Shown piece after piece: positions 7,666 to 62,701 of a stretch of 64,000 nucleotides of DNA. A program made the position numbers and the translations under genes. How positions within the stretch are numbered: position 1 is the first letter of the stretch; the number at the start of each line of letters is the position of its first letter. A model generated the notes under the pieces. The model was not told the DNA's origin. It saw only the letters and a program-made list of their open reading frames with translations, and ran no database searches. Origin of the DNA: a virus (lineage: Duplodnaviria; Heunggongvirae; Uroviricota; Caudoviricetes). The stretch is taken from the IMG/VR virus record IMGVR_UViG_2778261035_000005; one strand, 5' to 3'.

Positions 7666-8984
7666 AAAAGTTGATCGCACTTAAGCATAAGCTGGACGAA
7701 ATGAAAGCTATGGGAACCAATGCAAAAAAAGAGGCATTGGCCAACATGGATGACTTCGAGCAAAGCATGGTTTCATTGATGCTCAACCCTTTCATCCGTT
7801 TTGGGGTAAAGAAATACAAAGTGGTAGAGCCGCTTAGTGAGTCCGTCCCAAGTGACGAAAAAGCCATTGATATACTGAATAAGCTGGCCTCTCGCGAGCT
7901 GACGGGGAACGCAGCAATAGCTGCTGTTGAGTCTATCGTGGCGTCAATGTGCGCCGATGGGCAGGACGTCTTCCGTCGTTTCCTCTTAAAAGATCCGAAA
8001 GCTGGCGTTGGGATTAGCCTATGCAACAAGGTTTTTGAAAATCCCATTCCGAAATTCGAGGTGCAGCTGGCGTCACCGTATAAAGAAAAAGGCGACAAAT
8101 ACCCCTTCAAGCCAAACCCTAAAGCAAAATGGCCGATGATTGGCAGCCTTAAGCTCGATGGTTTGCGAGTAATTTGCGAGGTTATTGTTGACGAGGAAGA
8201 GGTTAACTTCCTTTCTCGTACTGGTAATCCAATCACGTCTCTCGATCACTTAAAGCCAGCCATGCTCGAATTAGGCAAACTTTCAGGCCACAAACACATC
8301 TTCTTCGATGGTGAAGGAACAGCCGGTTCATTTAACCAGTCCGTATCTGCATTGCGCAAAAAGAACGTGCAGGCAATTGGCGCTATTTATCATGTTTTCG
8401 ACTTCTTCCTACCGGAATGGCGAGCACAGGCTAAATCCAAAGAGTATGCAAAGACAGGTATGAAGCTGAAAGAGCGCCTGGCTATGCTGGTGGCGTTGTT
8501 CAAAAACGATCGCAGTGAAGGCTACACACAAGACATTCACCTGCATCCGTTCTACATCATCCATAGCCACGAAGACTTCATCGAACGCTTCATGAAACGC
8601 CTGGACGATAACGAAGAAGGGGAGATGGGCAAAGATCCGAACTCTGTTTACGAGTTTAAACGTACCCGCAGCTGGTGGAAGTTAAAAGACGAAGACTCAG
8701 AAGATGGTGAAATTATCGACTTTGAGCCGGGCGACCCGGACTCTGGTTTTGCCAACACGCTTGGAAAAATTGTTATTCGCCTTGAAAACGGTGTGATTGT
8801 TCGTGCGAGCGGCATTAAGCATAAATATCTGGACGAGATCTGGAACAACAAAGAGAAGTACCGTGGTCGTATTGTCGAGGTTCATTGTCACGAGAAAACG
8901 CCGGATGGCAGCTTACGCCACCCACGACTGAAATGGCCGCGTTGCTTACGCGATACAGAAGATCGAATCGGAGATAAAGAATGA
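7662..8984 (+). CDS. ATP-dependent DNA ligase
   Basis: nucleotidyltransferase motif I KLDGLR (SLKLDGLRVICEV); replication-gene context. Confidence 0.7.
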   Translation: MKKLIALKHKLDEMKAMGTNAKKEALANMDDFEQSMVSLMLNPFIRFGVKKYKVVEPLSESVPSDEKAIDILNKLASRELTGNAAIAAVESIVASMCADGQDVFRRFLLKDPKAGVGISLCNKVFENPIPKFEVQLASPYKEKGDKYPFKPNPKAKWPMIGSLKLDGLRVICEVIVDEEEVNFLSRTGNPITSLDHLKPAMLELGKLSGHKHIFFDGEGTAGSFNQSVSALRKKNVQAIGAIYHVFDFFLPEWRAQAKSKEYAKTGMKLKERLAMLVALFKNDRSEGYTQDIHLHPFYIIHSHEDFIERFMKRLDDNEEGEMGKDPNSVYEFKRTRSWWKLKDEDSEDGEIIDFEPGDPDSGFANTLGKIVIRLENGVIVRASGIKHKYLDEIWNNKEKYRGRIVEVHCHEKTPDGSLRHPRLKWPRCLRDTEDRIGDKE

Positions 8985-9160
8985 TGCTCGGCTGGATGAT
9001 TGCATTTTTAGCAGTTGGTTTTTTCATCGGTATTGTGGTGATGTCCAGTTGCATTAATGACTACATTAAAAACGGTGTTATAGAAAGACGCGGTCGCATT
9101 TATCGCATTGTAGAAATAACCAACACCGTGAAGGAGATTAAGGATGATCGTATTAAGTAA
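8981..9160 (+). CDS. small membrane protein (59 aa, not in ORF track)
   Basis: ATG overlaps ligase stop (ATGA); hydrophobic MIAFLAVGFFIGIVVM; paralogous to ORF at 9356. Confidence 0.4.
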   Translation: MMLGWMIAFLAVGFFIGIVVMSSCINDYIKNGVIERRGRIYRIVEITNTVKEIKDDRIK

Positions 9161-9359
9161 ACGGGAGAAGGAAACACTTTATGAAATCAGTAAGTGGCCG
9201 GAGTTCCCTGAGTACTGGAAGCCTAAAACGCGGGCTAAGTTAGAGCGGTTAGGGTTGGTTGCAAACGTTTCTGAAACGAGGGGGTCGGCCAACTACCAGT
9301 TAACTGATAAAGGGAAAGTATTGCTACAGCAATTAGTAGAATCAGGAGCGTTAAAATGA
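9144..9359 (+). CDS. hypothetical protein
   Basis: ORF track; aaggag SD 9 nt upstream. Confidence 0.45.
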   Translation: MIVLSKREKETLYEISKWPEFPEYWKPKTRAKLERLGLVANVSETRGSANYQLTDKGKVLLQQLVESGALK

Positions 9360-9508
9360 TTCCATACATCTCATTAGCTTTTATGGGTGGCTTTCTTATC
9401 GGCTTCGGCATCTGTCGTGATTTAATTAAGCAGGAACTTAAAACCAAAACACTGTGCATCGGAAAGCGTGTGTATCGGGTAGTTCATGAAACAAAGGTTA
9501 GAAAATGA
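9356..9508 (+). CDS. small membrane protein (50 aa, not in ORF track)
   Basis: ATGA overlap with upstream stop; MIPYISLAFMGGFLIGFGIC; start codon lies inside repeated AATGATTCCATAC element. Confidence 0.4.
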   Translation: MIPYISLAFMGGFLIGFGICRDLIKQELKTKTLCIGKRVYRVVHETKVRK

Positions 9509-9795
9509 GCAATTTAACTTCTTGGGACTGGTGGTTGGCCACCTATTTCTTAGCGGCCGGAGTCGCATTCGCCTTTTACGTAGGTCAGTTAGTCGTAAAA
9601 CTGTTGCTGATTAAATTTGCTAGTCATAAACGTATCGATGATGGTCTGTGGCGTCTTGGCACCCTGGTGGAAACTCGCTACGGGCAACTTAAGGAGAACG
9701 AAACCATTACTATCCAAGCGAAACGATTCACTGCCACCATCACAAGAACACCTAGTCGTAGAGTGGCCTTGATCAAAAAAGTCGCAACCGAATAA
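9505..9795 (+). CDS. hypothetical membrane protein
   Basis: ORF track; ATGA overlap with upstream ORF; hydrophobic N-terminus. Confidence 0.45.
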   Translation: MSNLTSWDWWLATYFLAAGVAFAFYVGQLVVKLLLIKFASHKRIDDGLWRLGTLVETRYGQLKENETITIQAKRFTATITRTPSRRVALIKKVATE

Positions 9796-10009
9796 AAACA
9801 CAATGATAAGTATTTACTTACTTATCTTTTATGTATAAGATGACTTTGTTTTCGTTGAGACGCGACTGTTTGAACTTAAATACAAGTGCAAACGAAGAAG
9901 TCTATCTGGCAGTAGCCTAATAAGCCAAACACCAGCGAGGTCAGTTTCCAGCCTCGTTACCGAAATGGGACACACTGAGCGAGTGTGATTGCAGAACGCA
10001 GGAGGGAAC

Positions 10010-10147
10010 ATGAATGTTCCCTCCGATGAAGTAACAGAATGGGCGGTCAGTATATTTTCAACTCATATACGACTCCCGGATTCTTATCCAATGACCGCCC
10101 ATCCTGTTACGTCATTTTGTTCAATTATGTCGTTTATACTGGGTTAA
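10010..10147 (+). CDS. possible small ORF (45 aa) with SD and start codon inside a perfect palindrome
   Basis: aggaggg SD then ATG at 10010; palindrome ggagggaacat-ga-atgttccctcc 10001-10024; may be RNA structure instead. Confidence 0.2.
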   Translation: MNVPSDEVTEWAVSIFSTHIRLPDSYPMTAHPVTSFCSIMSFILG

Positions 10148-10574
10148 AAAGCGGCGACGTAGCCCGGCTGGTATGGTTAGCCAGCACACAACGTTGAGGC
10201 CATTACATTTTTATCAATTCTAAGGTTCTATTCACAGAGATACCGGCGAGCGTTGATATGTAACATGTTGGGCAAACATTCAATCGGAGTAGTGGCCTCA
10301 ACGTTGTGAAGACAGGATAGTTGTGTAGGTTTAACCACTGTTGCCATTGGTGCCTGTTTTCACAACAAATGATTCCATACATCACATTGTATAAATTACA
10401 AAGTAAGTGCAGTCCTCAGAAACATCATCTACTTAAAGATTTTGCCTTCTACTATTGAGCGAAGTCGAAAGCGTCTGGCACTAACGAAAAGTGCAAGTAG
10501 CGGTGCGTTTCCTGGCAGAAACTAAACCGTCGCGATTGGCACTGTTGAGTAATAAATACTGGCAGTGCCGAATT

Positions 10575-14018: not shown

Positions 14019-15122
14019 ATGAAAAATAGCTTTGACAGAGCACGCGCTGCGGAGAACACCTCAAAAGAGGCGATTGAGTATCTCGAAAGAGCATCTCAAA
14101 TGCAGGCCGTTATGATCTCCCAGGTCAGCAATGACATGAGATTCTCGGACGCATTCATGTTATTCACTCGCTTATCTCTGCTGATAACAAGACGTCGGCC
14201 AGAGATCGCTGTTCATTGTATTTTGATACATGTTTTGCCGCACATTGCCGATGTAAAAGTAAGTGATATTAATAGGTTCATGGTGAACCAACTGGTCAAC
14301 CCACTAATACTGGATGGCAAAATTGTTATGGGTCGCCGCGTTTTCTCTCTGATGAAGCAGTTCCTCAGCTGGTGCGCCTTCCAGGGGATGATCGACGTGT
14401 CACCGTTAAACGATATGTCACTTAACAAAGTTGCCGGTGGCGCAAAGCCCACACCTCGCGAGCGGAAGCTAACCGACGCAGAGGTATGGGTGTTCTGGAA
14501 TATATGGGACTACTTCAATGTGTGTGCTGGTACAAAATGGGCGGCCAGGCTATGTCTTGTATCCGCAAGACGACCTGACGAAGTACTGCGGGCTAAAAAA
14601 AGTGAGTTCAACCTCCAGCGTGGGGTTTGGAATCAAGGCAAGAGAAACAAATCAGCCCGTGAGCATTCTCTGCCTTTAAGCACATTAATGCGCACATGCA
14701 TTGAAGAGTTATTCGAATATGGTAAAGGCAGCCAGTGGCTTGTGCCTTCGAATAAAAAAATCGGGAAAGATCTTCCGATGTCTAAAGTGGCAATAGCCCA
14801 GGCATTACGCCGTATCCTGGAACGACCAGAACTGATGGAGCTTGAGCCATTTACACCACGAGATTTGCGTCGTACTGCGCGTAGTTACTTCCCAGCATTA
14901 GGCATAAGCCAGGAGGTATCACGTAAAATCATGAACCACAGTCTTGAGGGGATAGATCGGGTCTACGACCGGCACGATTATATGGACGAGATGCGAGACG
15001 CCTTAGAAAGTTTCTCGACGTACATCGCATCAATCGTAGAGCAACCGGATTTAGACGAAATTGACCACAAATTCAAGGGAGATCGTCTATCGACAGAGCT
15101 TATTCGTGTAAATTTTTCATAG
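14019..15122 (+). CDS. tyrosine site-specific recombinase (integrase/resolvase family)
   Basis: C-terminal catalytic region PRDLRRTARSYF...HSLEGIDRVYDRHD (R, HxxR, Tyr); N-terminal ~120 aa lacks an obvious arm-binding domain. Confidence 0.75.
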   Translation: MKNSFDRARAAENTSKEAIEYLERASQMQAVMISQVSNDMRFSDAFMLFTRLSLLITRRRPEIAVHCILIHVLPHIADVKVSDINRFMVNQLVNPLILDGKIVMGRRVFSLMKQFLSWCAFQGMIDVSPLNDMSLNKVAGGAKPTPRERKLTDAEVWVFWNIWDYFNVCAGTKWAARLCLVSARRPDEVLRAKKSEFNLQRGVWNQGKRNKSAREHSLPLSTLMRTCIEELFEYGKGSQWLVPSNKKIGKDLPMSKVAIAQALRRILERPELMELEPFTPRDLRRTARSYFPALGISQEVSRKIMNHSLEGIDRVYDRHDYMDEMRDALESFSTYIASIVEQPDLDEIDHKFKGDRLSTELIRVNFS

Positions 15123-28725: not shown

Positions 28726-29556
28726 ATGAAGAAAGGTTTACTTGCAGTTGCTCTGGCGGCTATTTGCACAATGGGTCTTACTGGCTGTGATCGCGTGGAG
28801 CCTGGATACGTTGGCATCAAAGTAAACAAATTAGGTGAAGACAAAGGGATCGGTGAAGTGGTTGGCGTTGGTCGCCAATGGACAGGTCTTAACACCGAAC
28901 TTTACGTATTCCCGACCTTCAAACAAATGAAGACCTACGACGAGCCGTTCACATTCCAGATGAGTGACGGTACTGCTATTGGTCACAAAATTGGCGTTGC
29001 GTATCTGGTTAATCGTGACAAGGTAACGACGGTGTTCCAGACCTATCGCAAAGGCGTAGACGATATCACCGAATCAGATCTGCGTCAGAAAATTGCCGAC
29101 TCTCTAAACCGTTTGGCCAGCCGTATGACCACTGACTCATTTATCGACGGTGGTAAGGCGCAATTGCTGGACAACGCACTGAAAGATATTCAGAAAGAGA
29201 TGTCTCCGGTTGGTATTGAGGTACTGAGCCTGTCATGGGTTGGAAAGCCTGATTACCCAAAAACCGTCATTGAATCTATCAACGCCAAAGTAACGGCTAA
29301 CCAGCGTACTCTGCAACGTCAGCAGGAAGTTGAACAGCGTAAAGCTGAGGCGAATATGCTACGTGAACAGGCTAATGGTGAAGCTGATGCTATCCGTGCT
29401 CGTGCGCAAGCAGAAGCCGACGCCATTCGTCTGCGCGGTGAAGCTCTGCGTCAAAACCCGAACGTTATGGAGCTGGAAGCCATCAATAAATGGAATGGCC
29501 AGTTACCGCAGTACATGACTCAAGGGGCTAACACTCCTTTCATTACAGTGAAATAA
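28726..29556 (+). CDS. SPFH/band-7-like lipoprotein
   Basis: lipobox LTGC; PGYVGIKV start and coiled-coil QRQQEVEQRKAEANMLREQANGEADAIRARAQAEADAIR region typical of SPFH proteins. Confidence 0.55.
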   Translation: MKKGLLAVALAAICTMGLTGCDRVEPGYVGIKVNKLGEDKGIGEVVGVGRQWTGLNTELYVFPTFKQMKTYDEPFTFQMSDGTAIGHKIGVAYLVNRDKVTTVFQTYRKGVDDITESDLRQKIADSLNRLASRMTTDSFIDGGKAQLLDNALKDIQKEMSPVGIEVLSLSWVGKPDYPKTVIESINAKVTANQRTLQRQQEVEQRKAEANMLREQANGEADAIRARAQAEADAIRLRGEALRQNPNVMELEAINKWNGQLPQYMTQGANTPFITVK

Positions 29557-29572
29557 CTCCCCTAAAAAGTTC

Positions 29573-29597
29573 AGGCGTCCAGTTGGACGCCTTTTTT
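29573..29597 (+). terminator. intrinsic terminator
   Basis: aggcgtcc-agtt-ggacgcct-tttttat. Confidence 0.75.
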
Positions 29598-29647
29598 ATC
29601 GCAATTATCTTATTAAGAAAACAATTTGTTTAAAAGGATAAGAAAAC

Positions 29648-30073
29648 ATGACAGTTATTAAGAAACTCTACGATGCCGCAAACGCGGCTCTGGATGTTAT
29701 TGATGATGAAGTATCAAAAGGCTTTCCTGAACCTGATTGGGCGCATCAGCTACGAAACGCTATCGCAGAAATGACCCCATCAGATCCAACCCCCGACGAG
29801 ACAGACTGGCAGCGATTCATCCGTATGTACGCTCAGGAAATAGGTCCAACGCCAACGGCAGAGCAGGCAATGCTGCTGAAATACTTCAAAGAGGCGGGAG
29901 AGGATTTACCAATTGATGACTCAGCATATTGGTTCCACTGCGCATGGCGTAAGTATGACGTGATATTCACACAAGGCATGGGAAGCAAAGATATGGTTGT
30001 GTGGCATCTACTCCATATAGACACAGCCGTTGACAGAGTTATTGAACAGTTTTTCCCTAACCAAGAAGATTGA
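29648..30073 (+). CDS. hypothetical protein
   Basis: ORF track; conserved aaaacaatttgttt element and SD upstream. Confidence 0.5.
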   Translation: MTVIKKLYDAANAALDVIDDEVSKGFPEPDWAHQLRNAIAEMTPSDPTPDETDWQRFIRMYAQEIGPTPTAEQAMLLKYFKEAGEDLPIDDSAYWFHCAWRKYDVIFTQGMGSKDMVVWHLLHIDTAVDRVIEQFFPNQED

Positions 30074-30623: not shown

Positions 30624-30955
30624 AGACCATCCCATTCGCGCTGTTGTTTCTTTCTTCGATCGTTGTGGCCGACACCACTGTTTATCAGTGTGAAATGTCT
30701 GTAGCCGACGTTAAGAATGGCGCTCTTACCGACGTCATAAAAGCACCATATGGAGCGATGGTCGTAGACAGCGGCGACCAGTTCTATGTTGTGCGTGACG
30801 ATCGAGTGTTGTCATCCCCATATCTCACAAATCGTAATGGCAAATTAACCGGCGTCGGAGAAGACCACTTCGTATACAACAAATACAAGGGCTTCTATGG
30901 CGTTCACGCTTCTCAGCAAAGCTACCTTTTCGATGACTGCAAGGAGGTTGGGTAA
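30620..30955 (+). CDS. secreted protein of unknown function
   Basis: signal peptide MKTIPFALLFLSSIVVA. Confidence 0.5.
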   Translation: MKTIPFALLFLSSIVVADTTVYQCEMSVADVKNGALTDVIKAPYGAMVVDSGDQFYVVRDDRVLSSPYLTNRNGKLTGVGEDHFVYNKYKGFYGVHASQQSYLFDDCKEVG

Positions 30956-31167
30956 TGGCATTAACACTGGCAGGTCTGGAAATCGAGAAAACAAGCGGCT
31001 ACTGGCGTGCTAAGGGTTTCAAGCAGCCTGGCATTCTTGAGCGTCTGGAACGTGAAGATGGGTATATCGTCCACCAGCGGCGTGAATGGCGTATGTACGA
31101 TCCAGAAACAGGAAAACTGACTACAAAAGCCGGAACACTTTGGGGTCTGTTAAAGAAAATACACTAA
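30955..31167 (+). CDS. hypothetical protein
   Basis: ORF track; start overlaps upstream stop. Confidence 0.4.
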   Translation: MALTLAGLEIEKTSGYWRAKGFKQPGILERLEREDGYIVHQRREWRMYDPETGKLTTKAGTLWGLLKKIH

Positions 31168-31213
31168 ATGCAAACTGACTGCGGCACGTTCCGCAGTCAT
31201 ATTTCATAGTCGT

Positions 31214-31748
31214 CACCGCTGACAGCATACACAATCAACTACCGCTGATAGCATATCGAGAGTCTATCTCACCGCTCACAGCATACTTTACTCGATTTTT
31301 TACCGCTGACAGCATACTTAAGACATTGCATGAATAATGTGTACCGGTATGGGTATAACCAGAACAAAATTACCGCTGGCAGCATACGAATGTCTGACAT
31401 ATGCCATTAATTACCGCTGATAGCATATCCAAACAAAAATTCCTCAATAAAACACCGCTGACAGCATACGTTCTATCAGGGAGTAGCAGGCAATAAATGC
31501 CTTTCACTACAAGCAATCAGCGCAATAGCAATAGAATGTTAGTGAGCGCAAACCTATATGGAATGCACTCTTCGAGGTTAGTAACCACTGGGGAGGTATG
31601 ACAGAGCATTGAGTGGTGATAGATGATTTACCGCTCACAGCATACGTTCATCTCACTATACCGCTGGTAGCATATCTTTAACCGTTCACAGCATACTTTT
31701 CAGAAAAATAGCCGCTGATAGCATACATTTCACCGCTGACAGCATATC
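31214..31748. repeat. iteron array downstream of rep gene (incA-like), ~12 copies of ACCGCTGACAGCATAC-like 17-mer
   Basis: copies at 31214, 31241, 31270, 31301, 31371, 31412, 31453, 31629, 31659, 31681, 31710, 31732 with irregular spacing. Confidence 0.7.
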
Positions 31749-32841
31749 AAAGCAGTTTGAGACTATTGGAAAGGATCTCAATCATCTTGATATTTTCAGG
31801 CGTCAAATTCTGCGAAAGTTCGGTTATCTTGTTGATAATGTTCTGTTTGGCATCAATTTCCCCAGCTTTCTCATCTGGTTTTTTGGGTTCGATGTCTTCA
31901 GGTTTTGGCGGTGCGACTTTGAGTTTTGGATTGCGGCTGTGAATCTGGATATAGATCGACCGCCCACGCTTAATCTCGCTGTATTCGAGATAGCCCAAAT
32001 CTTGGAGAGCTTTTAAGCCGTTACGTATAGTCTGATTCTGCGAGCTGACATTCCTGCTACTCAAATTGAGTCGCGCACGCAATCGAGCAAGCGATACCGG
32101 CGCAGGCTTGGTTGGAAGACTTTCGATGAAGGTGTACAGAGCCTGTGCTGTTTCTTTGCGTGGTAGCTTATTGATAACCTTTAACTGCAAAAGAACCTTA
32201 TGGTCAAAGCGATATAGTTCGGCCAGCTTCGGTTCTGCATAGAACACCACCGTATCTTTCTGCTCGTTGTAGTCCACGCTATTGATGAGGTGCACCATCA
32301 GAAGCGAGATCTTGTTAGAGCCGTCGACGTTCTTTTCTTCATACGTTCTCTGGAAAGACAGAGTTGTACGCATGATCTTCAAAAGACTGTTTGTAAGCCG
32401 GTCGCGGAGTGTTTTGCGGATCTGTGACGATGGATAGCCACAAAACTTAGCAAATTTCGTGATGCTTAACTCGACACGACCGTTAGGTTCGCCGTATTCT
32501 GCCAGCGAACGCACAACGCCCACCCACGTTTTGAAATCATGATCCATGTCGAGACGAGGACCGGTTATCTTGATATCGGAATAGCCTTCAGAACGGGCTA
32601 CTTCGAGCTGGACAAGCTCCTTTGAAGCATCGATCTCATTTGGCTTGTTACGTTTACTGTATTTTGTTCCCTTAAGCGTGGGGACGAACAACCCCAGTCG
32701 CATCAACGCAATTGGTTGGACTGTATTGTTGCTATTAGGGACAAGTTCCCCTGTGTACAATTCAAGGGAACCTTCTTCAAAGTTGTCGATGTTATCTTCT
32801 ACTTCTTTGTTATTTTTACCTTTTTTATTTTTTGTGGACAT
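31747..32841 (-). CDS. repA: plasmid-type replication initiator (RepA-like, iteron-binding)
   Basis: flanked on both sides by the same iterons; aaagg SD before ATG 32841; track ORF extended to 32961 across the upstream iterons. Confidence 0.65.
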   Translation of the reverse strand: MSTKNKKGKNNKEVEDNIDNFEEGSLELYTGELVPNSNNTVQPIALMRLGLFVPTLKGTKYSKRNKPNEIDASKELVQLEVARSEGYSDIKITGPRLDMDHDFKTWVGVVRSLAEYGEPNGRVELSITKFAKFCGYPSSQIRKTLRDRLTNSLLKIMRTTLSFQRTYEEKNVDGSNKISLLMVHLINSVDYNEQKDTVVFYAEPKLAELYRFDHKVLLQLKVINKLPRKETAQALYTFIESLPTKPAPVSLARLRARLNLSSRNVSSQNQTIRNGLKALQDLGYLEYSEIKRGRSIYIQIHSRNPKLKVAPPKPEDIEPKKPDEKAGEIDAKQNIINKITELSQNLTPENIKMIEILSNSLKLL

Positions 32842-32860
32842 GTGGACACCTTTGTCATTC

Positions 32861-32963
32861 AACCGCTGACAGCATACTTGATTTGCCGCTGACAGAATAC
32901 CAAAAACAGTTGGCAGCATACGGTGAACCGCTGACAGACTATCAATTACCGCTGACAGCATAC
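32861..32963. repeat. iteron array upstream of rep gene (incC-like), ~5 copies
   Basis: copies at 32861, 32884, 32909 (partial), 32926, 32947 of CCGCTGACAGCATAC-like repeat. Confidence 0.7.
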
Positions 32964-33000
32964 ATGAACATGACTTCAGACCAGTCGTGGCGCGGCTTAC

Positions 33001-33080
33001 AGCGATCGGGGATCTTATTTGATCTATATAAGGATCTATCTATGGATCTCTTTATTAGGATCTATCCTGTGGATATGTGA
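33001..33080. promoter_or_regulatory. origin-like region: clustered GATC-containing short repeats plus DnaA-box-like sequence
   Basis: six GATC within ~65 bp in GGATCTAT-like repeats; TGTGGATAT at 33068-33076 (complement of TTATCCACA-like box); adjacent to incC-like iterons. Confidence 0.5.
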
Positions 33081-33162
33081 ATAATTAAAACAGGCATTTA
33101 CTACCTTCGGCGCACCTGGTGGGTTATCGTTGCCTCGGCTAACAATCACAGAAAAATGACAT

Positions 33163-33807
33163 ATGGATCTAAAACGCACGCGCTGGGTTCGTCGTCTTGA
33201 AGACGGCTCCTACACTATCGAATCAAATTCCAACCTGAATAAGCAGAAGTTGCTTTGTGACATCTGCGGTATAGCGGCGAAGTGCCCGATCTACGAAACC
33301 AGAATTAAACTTGATAAGGCTGGTGTGAATTTTCATTTAAACAGTTGCATCAGGTACGTTCCATTACTCGCATTTCGTAAACCGATCATCGGATTGGATG
33401 CTCCCTACTTCAACACACTCCGTTCAGGTGTGACGTGGCGAGATCGTTTATCACCAGACAAGCTGATTTGCCTCGTATCCGCAGACACAGGGAAAATCAT
33501 CCGTTTTGGGAAAGTAGACAAGGTTTACTCAGGCCCAGTAGACGAAATGTTGCGGAAACACAGCCGGTTTAATCATCTCTGTATGGGTGGTGAGAAAATC
33601 GAGAAGGTAGAAGAAGTGATCCGCAAATCCTACGGACACTTTCTGACCAAAGATAGCCTGCTCACCGCAATCTACATCAGACATGTAAAACGTGAGTTCG
33701 ACCTCGAATACCACAGCGAAGAAGAGCTTAACCTTGTTGACCCACGTCCAAAAGCTGGCGTCATAAGCATAAACGCAGCGCGTAAAAAGCCCACTGACGC
33801 GCTGTAA
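33163..33807 (+). CDS. hypothetical protein
   Basis: ORF track. Confidence 0.5.
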   Translation: MDLKRTRWVRRLEDGSYTIESNSNLNKQKLLCDICGIAAKCPIYETRIKLDKAGVNFHLNSCIRYVPLLAFRKPIIGLDAPYFNTLRSGVTWRDRLSPDKLICLVSADTGKIIRFGKVDKVYSGPVDEMLRKHSRFNHLCMGGEKIEKVEEVIRKSYGHFLTKDSLLTAIYIRHVKREFDLEYHSEEELNLVDPRPKAGVISINAARKKPTDAL

Positions 33808-53674: not shown

Positions 53675-55360
53675 ATGAATACAACTCTTTCCATCATCGA
53701 CGATACCAACTCAAACACTGCTATCGATTATCGTCAGGAAATGAACGTCATCCACGAAATCGTAGCCGAGTGCGAGAAAGAGATCGCCTTCATGTATCAG
53801 GTTCACGACTTCGTTTATTGCGATGAACGCCACAACATGATTAATCGCCTGCTTCGACTAAACCATAGACCAGATGAAGATCGCTCCCGTTTGAATCGAA
53901 TCTGGCTGGATAAAGTCGATCTGGAATGGGTGAAACAGAATATTTGGGCCGAGTACTGGAGGAAGGTCACGGACATGACTAACGTTCTGCTGATCATGCC
54001 AGCTTCCCGTCGCGACGAGTGGCGTGAGCAGTTTATCGAGGGCAAGCAGGAAGTCACCAAAACTGACAGAACCGGCTACCAGATGAAGGTTAAAGAGTTC
54101 GTTGGTGTACCGGAGTTCAAAGCAGAAACGGTCATACCAACGATGCTTAATTTGCTGAATGACAGGCACAAATATCTCTCCGAGCGCGTGTATGGCTTGT
54201 TTAAGGCGCTGAGTCCTGCGCACAAGACAAATAAGACGAACGGTTTCAGCGAGCGTCTGATAATCGCTGACTGCATTTCTGATTTCTGGCGGGACAGCGT
54301 TAGTGTGAACTATCGCAAAGAGGACTATATCGACGATCTGCGTGTCTTGCTTCATTTCTTCGCGCACAAAGAATTTATTACCATCAACCGCACTGCTGAG
54401 GTGCTATCAGCTGCGTATCGGGCAAACGACTGCCAGACCGGTGACTGGATGAACGTCGATGGAAATCTGATGCGCGTGAAGATGTTCAAGAACGGCAATG
54501 TTCACTTTGAAATACATCCTGACGTGGCTTGGAAGTTGAATGAGGTGCTGGCTTACAGTATGCCTGCTGCAATCCCCGCACCATGCCGCACTGCGCCAAA
54601 AACACGGGCACCAAAGCAGTTCGGGTTAATCCAGAAGACGATCTCCGTGCCGGTTCGCACTGCGCTTCGTGACGGGCGATTTAGCAAAGACAAAGGCGTA
54701 TGGTACTTCTCTGATTCAGCTCTCCAGAAGTCGCAGGTGGAAGAGCTTGAGCGCACACTGAGCTTCATTGGCGGCGTGCAGGAGAAAAAGCACTGGCAGT
54801 TCCCGTATGAGATCGGCCATACGCTAAATACGATTGTGGCTACTGGTTTAATACCGGATACAAAATCACACCAGTTCTACCCTACCCCACGCTTGATTGC
54901 TGAGTACGTTGCCAGAGCCACTGAATTGAAGCCTGGTGAGAAGCTGTTGGAGCCTCAAGCCGGACGTGGGGATCTTATGGCCTATATTAACGCCGATCTG
55001 GAAGATGTTACCTGCATAGAAATCGCACCTCTCTTCGCTGATATCCTGCGTGGAAAAGGGTATACGAACACGATTTGCTGCGACTTCATAAAGTGGTCTG
55101 AGGACAACGCAGGTTATCAGTTCGACAAAATCGTTATGAACCCGCCGTACTCGCTTGGTCGTCATAGAGAGCACACGCTGGCTGCGCTGGGGCATCTGAA
55201 AGTCGGCGGGCGTCTTGTAGCAGTATTGCCGGGCACTGCGCCAATACTGGACTGGATGACGATGGATAATTACGTTTATGCCAGAGGGAAGTCGTTTACC
55301 AACGAGTTTGAAGACACAGGGATCACAGTCAGCGTATACGTTTTCAAACGCGTTAAATGA
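53675..55360 (+). CDS. DNA methyltransferase (N6-adenine type, motif I then NPPY) with ~400-aa N-terminal domain of unknown function
   Basis: LEPQAGRGDL (motif I) and IVMNPPYS (motif IV) in the C-terminal third. Confidence 0.65.
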   Translation: MNTTLSIIDDTNSNTAIDYRQEMNVIHEIVAECEKEIAFMYQVHDFVYCDERHNMINRLLRLNHRPDEDRSRLNRIWLDKVDLEWVKQNIWAEYWRKVTDMTNVLLIMPASRRDEWREQFIEGKQEVTKTDRTGYQMKVKEFVGVPEFKAETVIPTMLNLLNDRHKYLSERVYGLFKALSPAHKTNKTNGFSERLIIADCISDFWRDSVSVNYRKEDYIDDLRVLLHFFAHKEFITINRTAEVLSAAYRANDCQTGDWMNVDGNLMRVKMFKNGNVHFEIHPDVAWKLNEVLAYSMPAAIPAPCRTAPKTRAPKQFGLIQKTISVPVRTALRDGRFSKDKGVWYFSDSALQKSQVEELERTLSFIGGVQEKKHWQFPYEIGHTLNTIVATGLIPDTKSHQFYPTPRLIAEYVARATELKPGEKLLEPQAGRGDLMAYINADLEDVTCIEIAPLFADILRGKGYTNTICCDFIKWSEDNAGYQFDKIVMNPPYSLGRHREHTLAALGHLKVGGRLVAVLPGTAPILDWMTMDNYVYARGKSFTNEFEDTGITVSVYVFKRVK

Positions 55361-61600: not shown

Positions 61601-62701
61601 TCACACTGCGCGGAATGCGATTTCGCCAGGTATTACTTCACCTTGCCAATACATTTGGGCAGCAACGCGATCTGCGAGGTCACGATAAATAGCCGTAAAT
61701 TCGCTATCTGGACGACTAATAACGGTTGGTGTTCCGTTATCCAGATCTTCACGAAGAGAGATATGAAGTGGCATTTGGCCTAACAACTGCGTGTTGTATT
61801 TCTCGGCCAGTTTCTGTGCGCCACCGGTGCCAAAAATTGGCTCGTGATGACCGCAGTTACTGCAAATATGCACACTCATGTTTTCGACGATACCCAGTAC
61901 CGGCACTTCGACTTTTTCGAACATCACAATGCCTTTCTTCGCATCGATCAGCGCGATGTCTTGCGGCGTAGTTACCACAACCGCACCAGTTACAGGAATG
62001 TTCTGCGCCAGCGTCAACTGAATATCACCAGTGCCCGGCGGCATATCGAGAACGAGATAGTCCAGATCAGGCCACAGTGTTTCCTGCAACATCTGCATCA
62101 GCGCCTTGCTGGCCATCGGTCCACGCCACACCATTGCATTGTCGTCGGTGACCAGATAGCCAATTGAATTGGTTGCCAGGCCATGAGACATGATAGGTGC
62201 CATGTGAGTACCGTCCGGTGAGGTTGGACGTTGGTTTTCCGCGCCCAGCATGGTTGGAATTGATGGCCCGTAGATATCGGCATCCAGAATACCAACTTTC
62301 GCACCTTCAGCCGCCAGCGCCAGCGCCAGGTTTACCGCCGTGGAGGATTTACCCACGCCGCCTTTACCGGAGCTGACCGCAATGATGTTCTTCACGCCAT
62401 TAATGCCTGGTTGGTTTTTGACGCGCTTAAGCGTGGCAATGTTGTACGACAGCTTCCAGTCAATAGCCTTTGCGCCAGTGATACGGAGCAGATCACCACT
62501 ACATTGCTCTTTCAGGTCTTCAAAAGACTTATTCCACACGAAAGGCATGATTAGTTCGACATGCAGTGTGTCATCCATCAACGCAACATGGTGTAACGCT
62601 TTAAGCGTAGTCAGGTTGTGTTTCAGGGTTGGGTGCTGAAAATTAGCCAGCGTACCGGCTACCATTGCTCTCAGGGCATCCGGCGATTTGGACTCGCTCA
62701 T
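61601..62701 (-). CDS. apbC: iron-sulfur cluster carrier ATPase ApbC/Mrp (chromosomal)
   Basis: near-identical to enterobacterial Mrp as recalled: SSGKGGVGKSSTAVNLALALA, CSNCGHHEPIFG. Confidence 0.95.
   Translation of the reverse strand: MSESKSPDALRAMVAGTLANFQHPTLKHNLTTLKALHHVALMDDTLHVELIMPFVWNKSFEDLKEQCSGDLLRITGAKAIDWKLSYNIATLKRVKNQPGINGVKNIIAVSSGKGGVGKSSTAVNLALALAAEGAKVGILDADIYGPSIPTMLGAENQRPTSPDGTHMAPIMSHGLATNSIGYLVTDDNAMVWRGPMASKALMQMLQETLWPDLDYLVLDMPPGTGDIQLTLAQNIPVTGAVVVTTPQDIALIDAKKGIVMFEKVEVPVLGIVENMSVHICSNCGHHEPIFGTGGAQKLAEKYNTQLLGQMPLHISLREDLDNGTPTVISRPDSEFTAIYRDLADRVAAQMYWQGEVIPGEIAFRAV

Follow-up and report, generated by a model that had tools for sequence, protein, structure and literature searches.

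Several iteron replicons of the P1/RepFIB family have been described. One is the IncY replicon of phage P1, arranged as oriR - repA - incA; another is RepFIB of the IncF plasmids, whose hosts are conjugative or mobilizable plasmids and not phages. Phage-plasmids of the SSU5 supercommunity have been typed as IncFIB (PMC7969092; bioRxiv 10.1101/2025.09.12.675607). The RepA protein of pECOH89, a plasmid that carries blaCTX-M-15, is 100% identical to that of p09EL50 and 48% identical to that of pLF82 (PMC3999498), and the PlasmidFinder label IncFIB(H89-PhagePlasmid) is in current use (PMC12838234). Further afield, ori2 of Vibrio cholerae chromosome 2, with its initiator RctB, is an iteron origin that depends on Dam methylation and is controlled by handcuffing (PMC6090056).

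Here we analyse a 1.9-kb region in a stretch of 64,000 nucleotides (the window) from a phage genome. By homology, the region contains the origin, the initiator gene repA and the copy-control repeats of a known ~110-kb E. coli phage-plasmid. Altogether, the data described below make it very probable that the region serves an SSU5-like phage-plasmid (p09EL50/pECOH89 type) as its replicon in the plasmid state, and that this replicon belongs to the P1/RepFIB iteron family.

Organization of the replicon

The elements of the region are listed below, starting at the left, outer origin end and finishing at the outer boundary of the replicon:

33068..33084, minus strand: tandem DnaA-box-like pair at the outer origin end, TTATTCACA + ATATCCACA, with one base in common
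33004..33067, no strand: AT-rich GATC-heptamer region with six GATC, which falls on the five Dam sites annotated in P1 oriR when the two are aligned
32963..33003, no strand: spacer separating the iterons from the GATC region, with GC-rich core GCCGCGCCACGACTGG
32863..32962, minus strand: five origin iterons (incC-like), spacing 21/21/21/23 bp
32874..32903, minus strand: candidate repA promoter, assigned by position; -35 TTGGTA (32903-32898), 18-nt spacer, -10 AAGTAT (32879-32874)
32853-32847, minus strand: Shine-Dalgarno-like AAAGGTG of repA
32833..32849, minus strand: weak tandem DnaA-box-like pair over the repA ATG, GTGTCCACA + ATGTCCACA
31747..32841, minus strand: repA, predicted iteron-binding initiator of 364 aa (Pfam Rep3_N, PHROG 775)
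31631..31746, minus strand: five proximal control iterons (incA-like), spacing 21/30/21/30
31469..31630, no strand: 162-bp iteron-free gap within the control array, no recognised feature
31216..31468, minus strand: seven distal control iterons, spacing 26-70 bp
31176..31199, no strand: bidirectional terminator-like hairpin (9-bp stem, 6 G-C pairs), outer boundary of the replicon

An earlier sequence-only reading had proposed the P1 layout for this locus (DnaA boxes, GATC heptamers, incC, repA, incA), and comparison with the annotated P1 record AF234172 bears this out element for element. Its repeats of ~17 bp around the rep gene, estimated at about five upstream and about twelve downstream, were counted as exactly 5 and 12, flanking a rep gene on the minus strand. 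The six clustered GATC sites that it reported are all present, at 33004-33062 (59 bp), and so is the DnaA-box-like TGTGGATAT at 33068-33076, which matches the DnaA box at 8/9 positions.

Iterons were sought throughout the 64-kb window with the core CCGCTGACAGCATA (plus strand; TATGCTGTCAGCGG in rep orientation), allowing at most three mismatches. This returned 25 matches, compared to 4.64 +/- 1.87 in shuffled sequences, none of which (0/100) reached 25. Seventeen of the 25 lie inside the region in a single orientation; their consensus is (G/A)TATGCTGTCAGCGGT(A/G), with about 17 conserved positions.

The origin region

The five origin iterons lie at -121 to -35 from the ATG. Their number and phasing match those of P1 incC, where the spacing is 21/21/21/22, as expected of a family member. 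The third copy is degenerate (TATGCTGCCAACTG), and is likewise degenerate in the Klebsiella phage pJN2-26. Beyond these iterons, on the side away from repA, stand the AT-rich GATC heptamers and DnaA boxes typical of the P1/RepFIB family. Each box of the outer pair matches TTATCCACA at 8/9 positions, one base off consensus; the second (TTATTCACA, at 33076-33084) abuts TGTGGATAT just beyond the interval covered by the sequence-only reading. The pair is placed as the annotated DnaA site of P1 oriR, at -243/-235 from the repA start as against -277/-268 in P1.

The GATC cluster is the densest in the window, where the average is 4.2 sites per kb and the next best 60-bp stretch holds 3. Five of its six sites are contained in AGATCC(A/T)-like heptamers, and G+C content falls to 33% over 33008-33067, compared with 0.454 for the window. 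It spans -221 to -166 from the repA start, whereas the five sites of P1 span -254 to -203, and is presumed to be the unwinding element and the target of Dam and SeqA. The spacer that follows has a GC-rich core (61% G+C over 32975-33007), GCCGCGCCACGACTGG, which is almost the same as GCCGCGCCACGTCTGG, the spacer of P1. Over the stretch running from the DnaA boxes to this spacer, 100 of 133 aligned columns (75%) are identical to P1 oriR; the alignment score of 56 stands about 13 standard deviations above that of shuffled sequences (-15 +/- 5).

The inner DnaA-box-like pair carries two mismatches in each box and, taken alone, is at chance level; a box at the inner end is found in P1 (CTATCCACA, -27), JK004 (TTATCCACA, -28) and pJN2-26 (GTATCCACA, -8) as well. 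The similarity to pJN2-26, of the Klebsiella pKPHS1 type, extends to the iteron core and to the direct orientation of all iterons. Its origin gives a gap-free alignment with ours (89% identity), and iteron cores, GATC sites and boxes are conserved. The two positions equivalent to the outer pair are occupied by a different variant, TTATCCACT in both cases, each one base off consensus.

The repA gene and its product

The 364-aa frame has an alternative reading of 404 aa that would start at 32961, within the iterons. The RefSeq RepA start also falls inside the iterons, an annotation that the base-level map would correct. The candidate promoter, between iterons 3/4 and 4/5, agrees with the consensus at 7/12 positions and is positionally analogous to the annotated PrepA of P1 (TTGCTA-18-TAGGAT). 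Scans of the rep strand for consensus sigma-70 promoters, strict and relaxed, gave no convincing repA promoter and both missed the 7/12 candidate; any autoregulation is therefore suggested by position only. A search of Rfam over 30900-33300 at a permissive E-value returned no match, and thus no sign of an antisense-RNA control system.

The sequence-only reading took the product for a relative of iteron-binding initiators and asked for comparison with the P1 and RepFIB RepA families. Both points are answered in its favour. The Rep3_N profile matches residues 118-239 (E 3.9e-9, 37.5 bits against a gathering score of 22.4), so that WH1 is recognised, and PHROG 775 matches with E 5e-133. In tblastn, RepA is homologous to the RepA proteins of P1 and P7 over residues 32-309 (43.5% identity, E 2e-64 to 1e-68). 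IncFIB-type plasmids, more than 5000 of them, have RepA proteins about 50% identical to it; identity is 47.9% to RepA of SSU5 and of phage Cyrano (which we take to be the LF82 plasmid) and 85% to RepA of the Klebsiella pKPHS1 type. An alignment of nine such proteins has 71 invariant columns. Compared with P1 RepA, the protein is longer by about 30 residues at the N-terminus and 55 at the C-terminus.

Scanning RepA and both neighbouring ORFs against NCBIfam gave no match. Nothing meaningful came from the PDB when it was searched by sequence, whether the query was the single protein or a profile built from nine sequences, and the fold was therefore assessed on a predicted structure. The AlphaFold model has a mean pLDDT of 71, with block means of about 78-92 for residues ~65-305 and a low-confidence loop at 214-226. 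Foldseek matched it to RctB domains 2-3 (5e-7), RepE (2z9o, 2.5e-5), the Rep-DUE complex 8ac8, a WH1 domain and, more weakly, pi (2nra, 1.8e-2). All matches at E<=1e-3 are initiators, with modest TM-scores (0.25-0.52). The model thus points to a tandem winged-helix (WH1-WH2) initiator of the Rep_3 (PF01051) type, as in RepE, pi and pPS10 RepA. RctB, although the best structural match, has no detectable sequence similarity to RepA, is much larger and works with 39-mers and crtS; ori2/RctB is a distant mechanistic analogue only.

The iteron array downstream of repA

A second array is a feature of the family, and here it comprises twelve cores between 31216 and 31746. The first proximal iteron abuts the repA stop codon, just as the P1 incA array starts at the stop. 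The two arrays differ in other respects. That of P1 holds 9 iterons, 3 direct and 6 inverted, and is followed by a parAB operon, whereas the 12 iterons here are all direct, are split by the 162-bp gap and have no par operon after them. The gap has no ORF of at least 50 aa, no Rfam match and no good promoter or terminator, and cannot be aligned with the shorter, unrelated gap of pJN2-26, where 8-9 iterons lie downstream. Of the 9 SNPs between the window and phage PhiR41_1, 7 fall in the gap, which is treated here as a spacer. PhiR41_1 also lacks exactly 87 bp, corresponding to three distal iterons, and has 9 control iterons instead of 12; the loss is consistent with recombination between iterons. 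Differing from P1 incA in number, orientation and gap, the array need not behave quantitatively as that of P1 does.

These departures from incA, together with the natural variation in repeat number seen in PhiR41_1, could be taken to mean that the array has no part in copy control and either serves as another origin or as a centromere-like site for partition, or arose neutrally when iterons were duplicated. A partition site would suit a replicon that no par operon adjoins, in a window where no centromere was located. The PHROGs name of 61601-62701, partition ParA, was rejected since Pfam identifies an Mrp/NUBPL-type NTPase, and no par system is therefore claimed in the window. The repeats themselves argue the other way. 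They match the origin iteron, so that RepA would be their parsimonious ligand, and no second GATC/DnaA module stands beside them. Just as in P1, the array begins right at the repA stop codon, and the Klebsiella relative has retained the cores but differs in the spacers. Downstream iteron arrays were found, moreover, throughout the relatives compared. We therefore give these other roles little credence and read the array as probable copy-control iterons.

Genetic surroundings

The hairpin at 31176-31199 follows the stop of a convergent plus-strand ORF (30955-31167). The replicon is embedded in a large cluster of genes for replication and nucleotide metabolism (DnaB-like helicase, primase, ligase, dnaE, nrdAB, thyA), the element thus encoding a DnaB-like helicase, a primase and a DnaE of its own. 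Such a setting, in an element that is a phage, would suit an origin serving mainly the lytic cycle and not prophage maintenance. We consider this highly improbable. Base for base, the origin is a homologue of P1 oriR, which is the plasmid origin of P1; lytic replication of P1 uses a different origin, oriL/repL. Thousands of IncFIB plasmids that are not phages are maintained by initiators about 50% identical to RepA, and a large iteron control array limits copies, the opposite of what lytic amplification needs.

Identity and typing

Plasmid p09EL50 of E. coli O104:H4 (NC_018651.1) matches the region with 100% identity over 1911 bp, and other ~110-kb circular non-mobilizable plasmids share the same identity. 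PLSDB has 142 matching records, of which 121 match over nearly the full length; the p09EL50 gene is annotated there as a RepB-family initiator. The sequenced phages PhiR41_1 and CMS-2020a are 99–100% identical to the region. The plasmid prophage suggested by the sequence-only reading fits this dual distribution among circular plasmids and deposited phage genomes. Given the identity to p09EL50, whose RepA is that of pECOH89 (PMC3999498), the RepA of the window is, by sequence, pECOH89 RepA, and we infer the PlasmidFinder type IncFIB(H89-PhagePlasmid). The replicon type is thus an ordinary, previously catalogued one, and it reveals no new mechanism.

Two other assignments were rejected. For IncFIB(pLF82-PhagePlasmid), RepA is merely 48% identical. 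The region is not the P1 IncY replicon proper either. Both have the order of outer DnaA-box pair, GATC heptamers, GC-rich spacer, five 21-bp-phased iterons, repA and control array, and P1 is also a plasmid prophage. RepA, however, is only 43.5% identical, the iteron cores (TATGCTGTCAGCGGT here, GATGTGTGCTGGAGGGAAA in P1) share only a T-TGCTG...GG skeleton, and the leader from the last iteron to the ATG is shorter here than in P1. On these comparisons the replicon is a separate specificity inside the P1/RepFIB family, slightly nearer to IncFIB RepA (~50%) than to P1 RepA.

To sample RepFIB, two plasmids typed as IncFIB were compared, plas1 of E. albertii and pKP187 of Klebsiella. The RepA proteins of this group are the closest non-phage relatives and share the C-terminal tail with RepA of the window. 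Scanning placed iterons on both sides of repA in pKP187 and only downstream in plas1; both plasmids have an upstream cluster of 5-6 GATC, with a DnaA box beside that of plas1. In these two examples the iterons are fewer, less regular and of other sequences, and the incompatibility specificity is therefore presumably different.

SSU5, pLF82 and pHCM2 resemble the window in the kind of host element, in replicon family and in layout. The SSU5 type also has the same flanking genes, a divergent 214-aa ORF on one side and ORFs of 70 aa and 111 aa on the other. Its iterons are of the ACCACTGTAGAGAG type, with some inverted copies, its RepA is 48% identical (see also PMC3999498), and SSU5 has two tandem origin-like modules. 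Because of these three differences, the window is seen to carry another replicon cassette within a related backbone.

It might be supposed that the replicon is a decayed, non-functional remnant in an element kept by another replicon; one origin iteron is degenerate and the search for a consensus promoter was negative. This reading has very slight probability. The repA frame is intact and 100% conserved in more than 100 plasmid records, rep_cluster_488 is the only replicon cluster (MOB-suite) that PLSDB assigns to p09EL50, the degenerate third iteron is kept in a relative whose RepA is 85% identical, and a phage whose genome was deposited as complete, with K-12 MG1655 as its host, also has the replicon. 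Finally, two 20-bp repeats on either side of repA are annotated as attR and attL in the pJN2-26 record, but the idea of an inserted module between att sites can be dismissed, as both repeats are members of an iteron family with 13-14 copies in pJN2-26 and 17 in the window, are phased at 21 bp with no recombinase adjacent, and carry a label typical of an automated prophage-boundary caller.

Proposed replication and copy control

By analogy with P1 and RepFIB, we infer low-copy autonomous replication that would depend on Dam and DnaA and be controlled by handcuffing. RepA monomers, activated by DnaK/DnaJ/GrpE, would occupy the five origin iterons. Host DnaA would bind the flanking boxes and, with RepA, open the AT-rich GATC region, leading to DnaB loading. 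Dam methylation of the origin would be required, and SeqA would sequester hemimethylated daughter origins. From its position on the origin iterons, RepA may also repress its own promoter. The twelve downstream iterons would titrate RepA and handcuff with the origin iterons, resulting in low prophage copy number and incompatibility.

A more speculative idea starts from two features, the all-direct bipartite array (5 + 7), whose repeat number varies naturally, and the C-terminal helical hairpin of RepA, which is specific to the RepFIB/SSU5 proteins. Together they could form a tunable copy-number rheostat going beyond a simple copy of P1 incA. We consider this unlikely. If true, phage-plasmids might use such a rheostat to multiply cargo, for instance blaCTX-M-15, or to shift into lytic replication. 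In the same speculative vein, SSU5-like backbones that are near-identical bear RepA/iteron cassettes of only 48% identity, which may reflect the swapping of cassettes to escape incompatibility.

Significance

The replicon type is a marker of ~110-kb phage-plasmids that form a widespread family in E. coli and Shigella and can carry resistance genes, and replicon-typing schemes list the replication genes of the SSU5 group as IncFIB types. A base-level map of the replicon corrects annotation at two points, the RefSeq RepA start within iterons and the iterons labelled as att in one phage record. It also aids the reading of copy-number mutants and the prediction of incompatibility between co-resident phage-plasmids.

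Iteron arrays and origin

A P1-type iteron replicon had been proposed at 31190-33080 of the window by a sequence-only reading. The region contains the following elements:

31176-31199, terminator-like hairpin, closing the replicon on the side opposite the DnaA boxes
31216-31746 (cores), twelve downstream (control) iterons, 3' of the rep ORF
31216-31468, seven distal control iterons, beyond the gap
31469-31630, iteron-free gap of 162 bp between proximal and distal control iterons
31631-31746, five proximal control iterons, adjoining the rep gene, the first abutting the stop codon
32841 (ATG), minus strand, repA, 364 aa
Over the repA ATG, degenerate tandem DnaA-box pair GTGTCCACA + ATGTCCACA, at the repA-proximal end of the origin
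32863-32962 (cores), five upstream (origin) iterons, 5' of the minus-strand rep ORF, start-to-start spacing 21/21/21/23 bp
32903-32874, candidate repA promoter TTGGTA-18-AAGTAT, only 7/12 match, position analogous to P1 PrepA (the P1 repA promoter)
33004-33062, six GATC sites in 59 bp, stretch 33% G+C
33068-33076, DnaA box TGTGGATAT, 8/9 match
33076-33084, second DnaA box TTATTCACA, 8/9 match, abutting the first, just beyond the interval first proposed

The plus-strand core CCGCTGACAGCATA (TATGCTGTCAGCGG in rep-gene orientation) has 25 matches with at most 3 mismatches in the 64-kb window, against 4.6 ± 1.9 in the shuffled window, where none of 100 shuffles reached 25. Seventeen of these copies lie in the replicon region, in a single orientation, and yield the consensus (G/A)TATGCTGTCAGCGGT(A/G). 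Beyond the upstream iterons the order is GC-rich spacer, GATC cluster, DnaA boxes; no denser cluster occurs in the window, where the mean is 4.2 GATC per kb. The sequence-only reading had estimated about 5 upstream and 12 downstream iterons, six GATC sites in about 65 bp and a DnaA-box-like sequence at 33068-33076, all of which were recovered. Consensus scans found no repA promoter; the 7/12 candidate is proposed from its position alone. That the downstream array is a centromere or a second origin is formally conceivable but unlikely: it is built from the iteron that is also found at the origin, and no further GATC/DnaA module lies alongside it.

The RepA initiator

RepA scores 37.5 bits (cut-off 22.4) against Rep3_N, the Pfam model for the WH1 domain of iteron initiators, and matches PHROG 775 (E 5e-133). 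Comparison with the P1 and RepFIB families, suggested by the sequence-only reading, gave 43.5% identity to P1 and P7 RepA (residues 32-309, E 2e-64) and about 50% to RepA of thousands of IncFIB-typed plasmids. Identity is 48% with SSU5 RepA and 85-88% with Klebsiella pKPHS1-type phage-plasmid RepA. When nine of these proteins are aligned, 71 columns are invariant, and a C-terminal tail of ~55 residues is common to RepFIB- and SSU5-type RepA, whereas P1 RepA lacks it. PDB sequence searches with RepA gave no match. An AlphaFold model built on a 40-sequence alignment has a mean pLDDT of 71 (core roughly 78-92), and its best Foldseek hits, at modest TM-scores (0.25-0.52), come exclusively from iteron initiators, namely RctB domains 2-3 (5e-7), operator-bound RepE (2.5e-5), a Rep-DUE complex and pi. 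Residues 329-363 (window 31750-31856, minus strand) are confidently predicted to form a helical hairpin (pLDDT 83-87), preceded by a disordered Pro/Lys/Glu-rich linker (residues 307-329).

RefSeq/PGAP annotates a 404-aa RepA starting at ATG 32961, within the origin iterons (extension 32842-32961, minus strand). We favour the 364-aa form from ATG 32841 as the probable true product because of the alignment with relatives, the presence of a Shine-Dalgarno-like AAAGGTG 6 nt upstream of this ATG, and the agreeing annotation of phage PhiR41_1.

Comparison with P1 and IncFIB replicons

The reference for P1 was the annotated record AF234172. Read in rep orientation, P1 and the window share a DnaA-box pair, GATC heptamers, a GC-rich spacer, five 21-bp-phased iterons and repA, and in both the control array begins at the repA stop codon; the P1 layout given in the sequence-only reading has the same order of parts. 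From DnaA boxes to spacer, 100/133 aligned columns are identical (score 56, against -15 ± 5.4 in shuffles), and common strings include GGATAGATCC and GCCGCGCCACG-CTGG. A repA-proximal DnaA box also occurs in P1, in JK004 and in Klebsiella phage pJN2-26, at the position where the window has its degenerate tandem pair.

The two also differ. Iteron sequences have only a T-TGCTG...GG skeleton in common. The window has six GATC sites, P1 five; its 12 control iterons are all direct and, unlike those of P1, split by the 162-bp gap, whereas the nine of P1 comprise three direct and six inverted copies (verified on the P1 sequence). While parAB directly follows incA (the control iterons) in P1, a convergent operon and a terminator take this place in the window. 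No par operon adjoins the replicon, and scanning of ORFs in the window revealed none elsewhere. One candidate, 61601-62701 (minus strand; 'ParA-like partition protein' in PHROGs), was rejected: Pfam gives PF10609 (Mrp/NUBPL-type P-loop NTPase, 2.4e-102).

Since ordinary IncFIB repA genes also have the GATC-plus-DnaA-box arrangement upstream, this layout is a family trait, not peculiar to P1. The P1-type assignment holds at the level of the P1/RepFIB family, given the RepA and origin identities, but not for P1's own IncY replicon, from which the iterons and control array differ; the window replicon has its own specificity. Use of the RepA/iteron origin as a lytic origin is unlikely, because its P1 homologue serves plasmid replication and plasmids that are not phages are maintained by RepFIB relatives.

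Conservation and variation in relatives

The 271-bp origin aligns without gaps to that of pJN2-26 (RepA 85%) at 89% identity, with the GATC sites, both box positions and all five iterons kept, even the degenerate third. In the downstream array, iteron cores are conserved; spacers and gap are not. The pJN2-26 record (MZ779062) labels 20-bp repeats at 1378-1397 and 2648-2667 attR and attL, as if the repeats flanking repA were att sites; however, both belong to the 13-17-copy iteron family, and the annotation is therefore mistaken.

In PhiR41_1 (99% identical) 87 bp are missing (window 31216-31302), exactly the spacing from distal iteron 1 to distal iteron 4, and its control array therefore has three iterons fewer. 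The loss bears the signature of iteron-iteron recombination, and the number of control iterons thus varies naturally. Of the nine SNPs that separate PhiR41_1 from the window, seven are in the gap and none is in an iteron core, a bias that, with such small numbers, is only suggestive.

In SSU5 (JQ965645), repA is preceded by two origin-like modules in tandem (760-990 and 1150-1400). DnaA-like boxes, six GATC and three iterons make up the distal module, while in the proximal one the heptamers are decayed (GAACC/GACCC) and are followed by a separate set of iterons.

Identity of the element

Plasmid p09EL50 of E. coli O104:H4 2009EL-2050 and several other ~110-kb circular, non-mobilizable plasmids of E. 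coli and Shigella sonnei contain the 1911-bp region with 100% identity; in the Escherichia phages PhiR41_1 and CMS-2020a the identity is 99-100%. The region matches 142 PLSDB records, 121 of them nearly full length; p09EL50 has no other replicon cluster in the PLSDB listing. Such perfect conservation, and the fact that no other replicon is typed, speak against a decayed remnant. The annotated product of repA is 'RepB family plasmid replication initiator protein'.

Window genes fit a p09EL50-type backbone (DnaB-like helicase, primase, ligase, dnaE, nrdAB, thyA, dfr, methyltransferase and tyrosine recombinase, the last at 14019-15122, plus strand). Between an SPFH-domain gene and the next ORF, p09EL50 has about 2.1 kb with three hypothetical genes (8375-10397) that are missing from the window at ~29556-29648; PhiR41_1 has the window's layout. 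A 214-aa ORF (33163-33807, plus strand), without a match in Pfam or NCBIfam, diverges from the origin and is positionally conserved in SSU5 (SSU5_070) and pJN2-26.

For pECOH89, the genome announcement gives a RepA identity of 100% with p09EL50 and 48% with pLF82 (PMC3999498), and current PlasmidFinder labels separate IncFIB(H89-PhagePlasmid) from IncFIB(pLF82-PhagePlasmid) (PMC12838234); from this we infer the H89 type for the window. Members of the SSU5 supercommunity are recognised phage-plasmids with IncFIB typing (PMC7969092; bioRxiv 10.1101/2025.09.12.675607).

Altogether, the initial observation is confirmed and its P1-type interpretation supported with refinements. The replicon itself is already known, having been sequenced and annotated before, and its type appears to be in use for replicon typing. 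In the cited literature we found no description of the all-direct bipartite 12-iteron control array varying in copy number between isolates, of the C-terminal helical hairpin of RepA, or of the annotation errors in public records of the replicon.

Proposed mode of replication

The most likely working scheme follows the P1 and RepFIB paradigm; the parts, statistics and homology are those observed here. RepA monomers would bind the five origin iterons, and DnaA the flanking boxes. In P1, opening is initiated by DnaA and greatly stimulated by RepA; DnaA sites flank the unwinding element on one side and RepA sites on the other (PMC5043065). In the window, the AT-rich GATC-heptamer stretch would melt, and Dam methylation would be required for origin use. 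Sequestration by SeqA would follow the Dam-dependent step. RepA sitting on the origin iterons would repress repA, whose promoter is only a candidate, while the twelve downstream iterons would titrate RepA and handcuff the origin, thereby limiting copy number and determining incompatibility.

The window also encodes a 561-aa DNA methyltransferase-like protein (53675-55360, plus strand; PHROG 6263; Pfam DUF4942). GATC methylation by this protein, if true, would matter for the GATC-rich origin.
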